Shown piece after piece: positions 50,025 to 52,466 of a stretch of DNA of 64,000 nucleotides. Source of the DNA: Escherichia coli (GTDB lineage: Bacteria; Pseudomonadota; Gammaproteobacteria; Enterobacterales; Enterobacteriaceae); assembly GCF_044647545.1 (NCBI RefSeq), contig NZ_CP172818.1; one strand, written 5' to 3'. The notes beneath the pieces were generated by a model, which did no database searches, had not been told where the DNA came from, and saw only the letters and a program-made list of their open reading frames with translations. Within the stretch, counting starts at the first letter, position 1. Every line of letters begins with the position of its first letter. Position numbers and translations under genes: made by a program.

Positions 50025-51054
50025 GGGCATTGATATCCCGTATGCCACAGACCCGGCAGGTAACCGCCTGCCCGACCCGGAGCTGCACCCGGACAGCACC
50101 CTCAGCATGTGGCCGGATAACCGTATCGCCCGTGACGCGCACTACCTTTACCGGTATGACCGTCACGGCAGGCTGACAGAGAAAACCGACCTCATCCCGG
50201 AAGGGGTTATCCGCACGGATGATGAGCGGACTCACCGGTACCATTACGACAGCCGGCACCGGCTGGTGCACTACACGCGGACACAATACGCAGAGCCGCT
50301 GGTCGAAAGTCGCTATCTTTACGACCCGCTGGGCCGCAGGGTGGCAAAACGGGTGTGGCGGCGTGAACGGGACCTGACGGGCTGGATGTCGCTGTCACGG
50401 AAACCGGAAGTGACCTGGTACGGCTGGGACGGCGACCGGCTGACCACGATACAGAACGACAGAACCCGCATCCAGACGGTTTATCAGCCGGGGAGCTTCA
50501 CGCCACTCATCAGGGTCGAAACCGCCACCGGTGAGCTGGCGAAAACGCAGCGCCGCAGCCTGGCGGATGCGCTTCAGCAGTCCGGCGGCGAAGACGGTGG
50601 CAGTGTGGTGTTCCCGCCGGTGCTGGTGCAGATGCTCGACCGGCTGGAAAGTGAAATCCTGGCTGACCGGGTGAGTGAGGAAAGCCGCCGCTGGCTGGCA
50701 TCGTGCGGCCTGACGGTGGCGCAGATACAAAACCAGATGGACCCGGTGTACACGCCGGCGCGAAAAATCCACCTGTACCACTGCGACCATCGCGGCCTGC
50801 CGCTGGCGCTTGTCAGCACGGAAGGGGCAACAGAATGGTGCGCAGAATACGATGAGTGGGGCAACCTGCTGAATGAAGAGAACCCGCACCAGCTCATCCG
50901 CCTGCCGGGTCAGCAGTATGATGAGGAGTCCGGCCTGTATTACAACCGCCACCGCTATTATGACCCGCTGCAGGGGCGGTATATCACTCAGGATCCGATT
51001 GGGCTGAAGGGGGGATGGAACCTGTATACACGCGCCGGGATATTCTACTCCTGA
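50025..51054 (+). pseudogene. ybfO: Orphan Rhs C-terminal core fragment, truncated just after [10 protein letters not shown]
   Basis: About 1 kb around 99% identical to rhsC 48165..49163; no start codon at the homology boundary; reads into an H-repeat fragment. Confidence 0.8.
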
Positions 51055-51150
51055 CTATTTGTGTCATCATTTCCGGTGCCGAAGGTTGAGAGGATCTTGA
51101 AAATTATGGCGAGACGCATCACTATTTTCTGAAGCGATATGGTGATTACG
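51017..51150 (+). mobile_element. H-repeat (ISAs1-like) internal fragment
   Basis: Homologous to codons about 26-70 of the transposase at 51322..52458, with stop codons. Confidence 0.6.
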
Positions 51151-51195
51151 AGAATGGAATAACCAGAATGGAATCCCAGGGAAAGATCACGTAAC

Positions 51196-52466
51196 GCTGC
51201 ATTTTTTGTACTAAACAATTCGCATTTTATGTTTAAAAATTGAGATATTCCTCATTACCTGAAGCTGTTTTTTATTGCTTATACATGATCAAATACTCCT
51301 TACATAATTAAGGAGAACAAAATGGAACTTAAAAAATTGATGGAACATATTTCTATTATCCCCGATTACAGACAAGCCTGGAAAGTGGAACATAAATTAT
51401 CGGACATTCTACTGTTGACTATTTGTGCCGTTATTTCTGGTGCAGAAGGCTGGGAAGATATAGAGGATTTTGGGGAAACACATCTCGATTTTTTGAAGCA
51501 ATATGGTGATTTTGAAAATGGTATTCCTGTTCACGATACCATTGCCAGAGTTGTATCCTGTATCAGTCCTGCAAAATTTCACGAGTGCTTTATTAACTGG
51601 ATGCGTGACTGCCATTCTTCAGATGATAAAGGCGTCATTGCAATTGATGGAAAAACGCTCCGGCACTCTTATGACAAGAGTCGCCGCAGGGGAGCGATTC
51701 ATGTCATTAGTGCGTTCTCAACAATGCACAGTCTGGTCATCGGACAGATCAAGACGGATGAGAAATCCAATGAGATTACAGCTATCCCAGAACTTCTTAA
51801 CATGCTGGATATTAAAGGAAAAATCATCACAACTGATGCGATGGGTTGCCAGAAAGATATTGCAGAGAAGATACAAAAACAGGGAGGTGATTATTTATTC
51901 GCTGTAAAAGGAAATCAGGGGCGGCTTAATAAAGCCTTTGAGGAAAAATTTCCACTGAAAGAATTAAATAATCCAGAGCATGACAGTTACGCAATGAGTG
52001 AAAAGAGTCACGGCAGAGAAGAAATCCGTCTTCACATTGTTTGCGATGTCCCTGATGAACTTATTGATTTCACGTTTGAATGGAAAGGTCTGAAGAAATT
52101 ATGCGTGGCAGTCTCCTTTCGGTCAATAATAGCAGAACAAAAGAAAGAGCCAGAAATGACGGTCAGATATTATATCAGTTCTGCTGATTTAACCGCAGAG
52201 AAGTTCGCCACAGCAATCCGAAACCACTGGCACGTGGAGAATAAGCTGCACTGGCGTCTGGACGTGGTAATGAATGAAGACGACTGCAAAATAAGAAGAG
52301 GAAACGCCGCAGAATTATTTTCAGGGATACGGCACATCGCTATTAATATTTTAACGAATGATAAGGTATTCAAGGCAGGGTTAAGACGTAAGATGCGAAA
52401 AGCTGCCATGGACAGAAACTATCTCGCGTCAGTCCTTGCGGGGAGCGGGCTTTCGTAATCTTTCCC
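51196..52466 (+). mobile_element. H-repeat element copy 1 (Rhs-associated ISAs1-family element)
   Basis: About 125-bp leader repeated verbatim at 52467..52588; contains an intact 378-aa ORF. Confidence 0.7.
51322..52458 (+). CDS. ybfL: H repeat-associated protein / ISAs1-family DDE transposase
   Basis: 378 aa intact ORF; gene symbol assigned from K-12 order and is uncertain. Confidence 0.8.

Follow-up and report, generated by a model that had tools for sequence, protein, structure and literature searches.

How an orphan rhs core came to run almost directly into the interior of an H-repeat transposase, with neither a complete toxin tip nor an immunity gene in between, is the question raised by an 8-kb Rhs element in a 64,000-nucleotide (nt) stretch of Escherichia coli DNA (assembly GCF_044647545.1, contig NZ_CP172818.1), to which we refer as the window. 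The gene order of the window is gltJKL through kdpFABCDE-ybfA, the Rhs element, and then ybgA-phr-dtpD through abrB-ybgO. An initial annotation had proposed that the join was either a real recombination between rhs and H-repeat DNA or an assembly collapse across repeats. From comparisons of the window with other E. coli sequences, we believe that the join, at 51031-51037, is probably a non-biological seam and not the outcome of recombination in a living cell. The features on which the argument turns are listed by coordinate in Table 1.

The orphan core ends with the motif GGWN at 51010-51021, within an open reading frame (ORF) of 315 amino acids (aa; 50107-51054) that stops at 51054. The 10 nt that follow are the sole remnant of a natural toxin tip; identity to the natural counterparts of this orphan (loci L006 and L008, from the rpmE-metJ interval discussed below) runs through 51030. 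After the tip residues LYT, the ORF reads RAGIFYS and then stops, and the orphan thereby consists of its core fragment plus 4 residues of tip and 7 codons that are out of frame. No ORF, and with it no immunity gene, was found between 51054 and the intact H-repeat copy downstream. The intervening segment at 51038-51160 matches the 378-aa transposase of that intact copy at 31 of 41 residues (E=5e-21; blastn, E=1.6e-18), with an in-frame TGA at 51086-51088 in place of a Trp codon and a TAA further downstream. On these points the initial annotation was accurate: it had noted that GGWN is followed by DNA homologous to the transposase interior (codons about 26-70, compared with residues 28-68 in our alignment) and interrupted by stops, and that the orphan's toxin tip and immunity gene are absent.

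Functional orphan rhs-CT/immunity modules retain a toxin tip together with its cognate immunity gene (Poole et al. 2011, PMC3150448; for Salmonella orphan rhs, PMC7043789). The window resembles such modules in having a 5'-truncated rhs core downstream of an rhs gene of full length and in the same orientation, but the toxin tip and the downstream immunity gene, i.e. the defining payload, are both missing. Taken at face value, the stub could not act as a toxin-displacement cassette, its tip and immunity gene being gone.

We observed no shared homology, repeat or microhomology between the two sides of the join, which are separated by 6-8 unmatched nt. The natural locus reads CTGTATACA then TATCCGCTGAGCCCGGTGAATGG at this point, and the window reads CTGTATACA then CGCGCCGG then GATATTCTACTCC; the filler at 51031-51037 matched nothing in any of the loci that we fetched. 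These observations bear directly on assembly collapse, in which the true genome would hold an orphan tip and immunity gene that were skipped through mis-joined rhs cores or H-repeat copies. The region is indeed dense in repeats (two rhs cores that are 98-99% alike and three H-repeat copies), and an unpolished long-read consensus could account for the indel-rich stretches in its repeat copies. However, a collapse needs two copies of one repeat, and the H-repeat interior bears no resemblance to the beginning of the orphan tip, with unmatched nucleotides between them. Nor would a collapse account for the presence of an Rhs element where the lineage has an empty site, for the degeneration of single-copy DNA at 3-5 kb and 13.5 kb, or for a switch in sequence at 62186, all of which are described below. 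The initial annotation was right to consider an artefact, and yet a simple collapse appears quite improbable; the Rhs element as a whole is better read as a composite that no public genome matches, in a window with further non-biological patches.

We searched 5,426 complete E. coli genomes, by megablast and blastn, for relatives of the window. Full-length flank and rhs-gene queries returned best matches of only 96-97%, which prompted the idea that the window came from a divergent Escherichia species or clade. That idea was rejected, as a shorter flank query found 99.9% matches in 59 ST648-lineage genomes and the flanks proved to be 99.9-100% ST648. Compared with strain ST648 (NZ_CP008697.1), the window was free of substitutions in two long stretches: the alignment of positions 13651-45374 (31,725 nt) contained 1 gap, and that of positions 53394-62186 (8,797 nt) contained a single gap of 4 nt. 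In the ST648 genome, ybfA and ybgA are adjacent, 100 nt apart, without an Rhs element, and the element of the window lies exactly in this empty site, occupying 45375-53393 (8,019 nt). The site is empty in 1,310 of the 5,426 complete genomes (query L004 11750-12150), and in genomes without the empty allele the match was split where the window's element begins. A 10-mer of the empty site, CTTTTTTCGG, is retained in the window; we considered it as proof that the element was pasted in, and dropped this argument since the K-12 sequence CATTTCTCAA may be its diverged homologue.

The element is laid out as in K-12, where the annotated order is rhsC, ybfB, an orphan rhs pseudogene (rhsO/ybfO), ybfC, ybfQ, a pseudo-H-repeat (ybfL), ybfD and ybgA; the initial annotation likewise described the K-12 orphan ybfO as carrying a tip followed by ybfC. 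The two elements occupy the same ybfA-ybgA site with the same succession of a full rhs gene, a ybfB-type gene, an orphan core, an H-repeat fragment, a full-length H-repeat and an internally deleted H-repeat. The main toxin tip and ybfB of the window are about 98% identical to those of K-12, and its third H-repeat shares the internal deletion point of ybfD. In the alignment, window position 51020 pairs with K-12 position 2830 (locus L001) and position 51039 with 4214; the 1,383 nt of K-12 that are absent, close to the 1.4 kb estimated initially, cover the rhsO/ybfO tip, ybfC, the spacer and ~80 nt from the 5' end of ybfQ, with 18 nt in their place. Unlike the K-12 element, that of the window has neither orphan tip nor ybfC, lacks 71 nt at the left end, shows base dropouts at its ends, and carries an H-repeat fragment only ~79% identical to ybfQ. 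Its rhs gene region also differs from rhsC, the best identity to any rhsC in the 5,426 genomes being 96.9%. By site and overall order, the element of the window matches a K-12-type RhsC element; we do not class it as one, given the absent orphan tip and ybfC, a coding body from another locus and the empty site in the closest lineage.

The coding body is that of a different Rhs locus. Window positions 45479-51030 were 100.000% identical over 5,552 nt to the Rhs locus between rpmE and metJ in the ST648-like strain DFL.5 (L006), a stretch that takes in the rhs gene with the 106-aa gene that follows it, and then the core of the orphan along with 10 nt from the start of its tip. This chromosomal position is listed as site 10 (b3936-b3937, rhsW7 / EcolC_4081) in a table of Rhs loci in the paper on the E. 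coli W genome (PMC3032704). The exact 1394-aa Rhs protein of the window was at the rpmE-metJ locus in 3 of the 3 record places shown. There, the natural orphan continues past the equivalent of 51030 as TATCCGCTGAGCCCGG; following GGWNLYT the protein continues YPLSPVNGMDPLGL in a 469-aa ORF whose 165-residue tip contains a DUF4329 domain, and a 107-aa gene comes next (L008 16039-16362). Because the orphan and the first nucleotides of its tip are identical to the rpmE-metJ locus, what this orphan 'lost' is the DUF4329 tip and the 107-aa gene, not the ybfO tip and ybfC, and the earlier picture of a K-12 ybfO derivative has to be given up. A simple 1.4-kb deletion within a K-12-type RhsC element was discarded on the same evidence, and on the identity of the H-repeat fragment to a third locus (see below). 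The natural rpmE-metJ element is, for its part, unlike that of the window: it lies at another chromosomal site behind another leader, its orphan keeps the DUF4329 tip and the 107-aa gene, and no H-repeat follows.

Were the element real, the rhs gene, immunity gene and orphan cassette might have been copied recently from rpmE-metJ into the empty ybfA-ybgA site of an unsampled ST648-related strain, where the orphan would have given up its tip and immunity gene on being joined to an array of RhsA- and RhsE-type H-repeats. We think this very unlikely. If true, three other loci would have supplied the parts of a new Rhs locus in a clone of clinical importance, and the copied cassette would be inter-locus Rhs 'rearrangement hot spot' activity caught in the act of making a new Rhs locus.

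The H-repeat DNA and the two ends of the element point to still other sources. The fragment at 51038-51160 was 100% identical to positions 10001-10123 of the ST648 RhsA locus (yibF-yibH; L005), including the same 5' truncation point, and at that locus AT-rich DNA precedes the fragment. Since the internal truncation is common to the RhsA-locus copy, the 5' end of the fragment is not an insertion boundary. The stutter-like insertion at 51161-51175 is absent from the otherwise identical natural fragment, and nothing in the complete genomes matched the region 51038-51330 at more than 94.5%. The full-length H-repeat (51176-52468) was 99.1-99.4% identical to RhsE-locus copies (L009 and L011), and its exact 378-aa transposase, which is widespread in the records, was at RhsE loci in 6 of the 6 places shown. 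The third H-repeat differed from a natural RhsE-locus copy (L009 12223-13108) by 3 substitutions and 18 missing bases, with none extra. Fifteen of the missing bases were G and 3 were C; G makes up 21% of the reference, and 15 G among 18 deletions is therefore implausible as either a mutational or a sequencing spectrum. The idea that the third H-repeat is an imperfect copy of the second one in the window was not supported, as it has 18 mismatches to that copy and only 3 to the natural RhsE-locus copy. At the left end, the leader (45375-45479) showed 0 substitutions and 13 missing bases relative to the ST648 RhsA-locus leader. The filler at the seam looks like the product of the same dropout process as the element ends, because the 8 letters of CGCGCCGG occur in order within the 16 nt with which the natural tip goes on, a relation expected for a random 8-mer with a probability of 0.024.

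Two other patches of the window were degenerate. At 3050-5140, an island between gltI and lnt with a rhomboid-family protease gene, intact in the ST648 lineage, shared only 81.7% identity with ST648 (266 substitutions, 66 gap openings) and retained no ORF of at least 150 aa. Bases in this patch are smoothed into runs (A28 at 3051-3078, G11, A13 and A12), and perfect ST648 blocks (3080-3640 and 4255-4364) are interleaved with the degraded sequence; no complete E. coli genome matched window positions 2900-5300 better than about 84%. At 13470-13650, G and C bases drop out progressively from a hypothetical gene beside a tRNA array (FH07_RS28310 in ST648), and about 440 nt collapse into a run of A49 (13588-13636), after which the match to ST648 re-locks at 13651. 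Homopolymers in the natural loci that we fetched were never longer than 9. A further discontinuity was found at 62186/62187. The window is 100% ST648 before this point and, across ybgO-ybgP after it, 100% identical to E. coli P12b (CP002291.1) and other genomes, even though positions 61000-62186 are only 94.4% identical to P12b-type genomes; beyond the equivalent point, ST648 has a FadR/TRAP-transporter island instead of ybgO-ybgP. By these comparisons, the window is verbatim ST648 in the conserved core and chimeric or degenerate where E. coli strains differ in gene content.

The initial annotation had named the same junction in a reference for this strain as evidence that would refute it. The rhs/H-repeat junction was in 0 of the 5,426 complete genomes, and the closest genomes are empty at ybfA-ybgA. 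The exact junction 37-mer, GGATGGAACCTGTATACACGCGCCGGGATATTCTACT, was absent from GTDB representative genomes and JGI metagenomes. In exact-protein look-ups, the 315-aa orphan ORF, the 197-aa ORF of the third H-repeat and the 495-aa Phr variant of the window were not on record, and proteins from the clean blocks of the window were.

A direct join of an rhs core to an H-repeat, with tips and immunity genes lost, does exist at the ybfA-ybgA site of E. coli 2012C-4502 (NZ_CP027440.1). The site in that strain consists of ybfA, a truncated rhs core, ybfD and ybgA; the tip, ybfB, the orphan, ybfC and two H-repeat copies are gone, and the join (L016 8270-8300) reads CTGCAGGGG then CCAGGGAAAGATC. In contrast with the window, it is the main rhsC core that is truncated, at CTGCAGGGG, where the motif CAGGG provides microhomology to the H-repeat left end, and everything between the core and ybfD has been removed, with neither filler nor an H-repeat interior fragment at the join. 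This natural example favors the view that the window join is a real deletion or illegitimate recombination. An ST648-related isolate would have had an Rhs element at ybfA-ybgA whose core, tip and orphan were gene-converted with rpmE-metJ, and a deletion or an H-repeat-associated event that removed the orphan tip and immunity gene would then have joined the stub to a pre-existing H-repeat fragment, leaving a dead orphan. Also in keeping with this view, H-repeats normally lie just 3' of rhs tips (about 0.4 kb away in RhsE-type loci), the RhsA-locus fragment has the identical 5' truncation point, ybfA-ybgA is occupied in about 76% of complete E. coli genomes, and rhs cores are nearly identical within a genome, as is evident from the identity of window positions 45736-48866 to the ST648 RhsA-locus core. 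Nevertheless, we consider a real deletion unlikely. The site is empty in the lineage that matches 40 kb of flank with 0 substitutions; at the ends of the element, nearly all departures from natural sequence are missing bases, strongly biased to G, and this is no mutational spectrum; the join has filler and no microhomology; the junction is in no public genome, metagenome or protein record searched; and the same window holds stretches that cannot be biological.

We judge the seam to be non-biological, probably, because the matching lineage has nothing between ybfA and ybgA, the element of the window is pieced together from several loci, the dropouts at its ends and at the seam are biased, non-biological patches occur elsewhere in the window, and the junction is absent from public data. 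Where gene content differs between E. coli strains, the window changes over abruptly to the sequence of other strains or loci and decays into base dropouts and homopolymer runs. The 8-kb element is one of these places, a patchwork with the layout of K-12 RhsC and the coding body of rpmE-metJ, in which the H-repeat fragment is that of the RhsA locus and the H-repeat copies are RhsE-like, between two K-12-like ends with dropouts. At the seam, the AT-rich, strain-specific tip of the natural orphan starts for 10 nt, gives way to 8 nt resembling a dropout of the next 16, and is followed by a jump to an H-repeat fragment of a commonly seen kind. The generating process may have been machine generation or imputation of sequence, or a chimeric consensus of very low quality; the pattern seems to us to resemble these more than the error profiles of sequencing platforms. 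Nanopore, PacBio and homopolymer errors were set aside as the source of the dropouts by reasoning, as they do not explain G-specific single-base loss outside homopolymers; again by reasoning only, platform error profiles also fail to account for purine-only smoothing and for noise confined to accessory single-copy genes.

It should be noted that several points weigh against a non-biological origin. Natural sequence is reproduced perfectly in the 5.5 kb before the join and in the 123 nt that follow the 7-nt filler, and what is unmatched in the region of the join comes to only 6-8 nt plus the 14-nt insertion. The deletion in 2012C-4502, through its CAGGG microhomology, shows that a real loss between rhs core and H-repeat has occurred at the same locus. 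Rhs loci are known recombination substrates, so that a natural patchwork is conceivable. The rhs element has no long homopolymer runs of the kind at 3-5 kb and 13.6 kb. The exact-protein look-up fails where a gene caller has picked another start codon, and public collections are incomplete. Finally, the proposed generating process is read from sequence patterns only.

A toxin-less orphan rhs stub beside dead H-repeats would be, in any event, an ordinary decay product with a natural equivalent in 2012C-4502, and carries little biological weight; the deletion in that strain keeps a biological reading alive, yet makes such a reading unremarkable. The window does not faithfully reproduce a natural chromosome, and other features in it, above all those at 3050-5140, 12590-13650, 45375-53393, around 55354 and beyond 62186, need a check of provenance before they are interpreted.

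Table 1. Coordinates of the Rhs element, its join and its immediate flanks in the window
Feature	Position (nt)	Strand	Remarks
Left flank: ybfA (45116-45322) and terminator hairpin	45116-45374	+	45374 is the last base common with the ST648 empty site
rhs leader, RhsA/RhsC type, not rpmE-locus type	45375-45479	+	Four-way alignment
Full-length Rhs protein gene, 1394 aa	45480-49664	+	DUF6531, RHS repeats, RHS core, K-12 RhsC-type C-terminal tip
YbfB-like 106-aa gene	49669-49989	+	Identical DNA at L006 14190-14510, called as a gene; K-12 ybfB at the same position
Orphan rhs core fragment	50035-51020 (homology)	+	Pfam RHS core, E=3e-15; 100% identical to L006 14556-15541
Start of the natural orphan's toxin tip	51021-51030	+	10 nt, CCTGTATACA; end of the N codon, then L Y T
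Seam filler, CGCGCCG	51031-51037	+	Reads CGCGCCGG when the next G is included
Dead H-repeat (ISAs1-family) fragment	51038-51160	+	Transposase residues 28-68, out of frame with the rhs ORF
Stutter-like insertion, 14-15 nt, AACCAGAATGGAAT	51161-51175	+	Echoes the preceding AGAATGGAAT
Complete H-repeat/ISEc1-like element	51176-52470	+	Intact 378-aa ISAs1-family transposase gene, 51322-52458
Third H-repeat copy, many 1-nt deletions	52466-53336	+	Same internal truncation point as K-12 ybfD
Degenerate tail	53337-53393	+	Like the K-12 ybfD 3' end, about 50 bases missing
Right flank, ybgA 53441-53950	53394-53950	+	ST648 identity resumes one base past the left breakpoint

Read literally, the locus would contain a single intact Rhs toxin gene, its presumed immunity gene and a dead orphan, together with one apparently intact H-repeat and two dead ones. 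The 1394-aa protein has the hallmarks of an Rhs polymorphic toxin, namely DUF6531 (1.1e-17), RHS/YD repeats (RHS_repeat, 6.7e-66, in 12 stretches) and an RHS core (7.2e-16) that ends in the PxxxxDPxGL motif, DPIGL being visible in the translation. Its 156-residue tip after GGWN and the 106-aa gene product both lack a Pfam match; the 106-aa YbfB-like gene is presumed from its position to be the cognate immunity gene. The core of this rhs gene and that of the orphan (50035-51020) are 98.4-99% identical. The 378-aa transposase is intact by the standard of the ISAs1 family (DDE_Tnp_1_assoc, 7e-34; DDE_Tnp_1, 8.7e-31), which is true neither of the fragment at 51038-51160 nor of the frameshifted, truncated copy at 52466-53336.

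Some further observations on the lineage and the flanks may be added. The core of the rhs gene at the ST648 RhsA locus (L005 3261-6392) is 100% identical over 3.1 kb to window positions 45736-48866, and so also to the rpmE-metJ copy; the identity of the two cores shows strong homogenization of rhs cores in the lineage. The RhsA-locus rhs gene of ST648 is annotated as frameshifted. In the tRNA array at 12560-13000, the window has several more tRNA genes than the ST648 assembly, which reflects either a collapsed array in that assembly or another strain switch. Positions 12510-13468 of the window are 99.3% identical to K-12, as compared with only 96-98% for positions 5430-12702 and 13652-15643. 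Lastly, a 4-nt deletion (AAGG) at 55354, near the 3' end of phr, shifts the reading frame and gives an ORF of 495 aa, as compared with 472 aa in ST648 and K-12.

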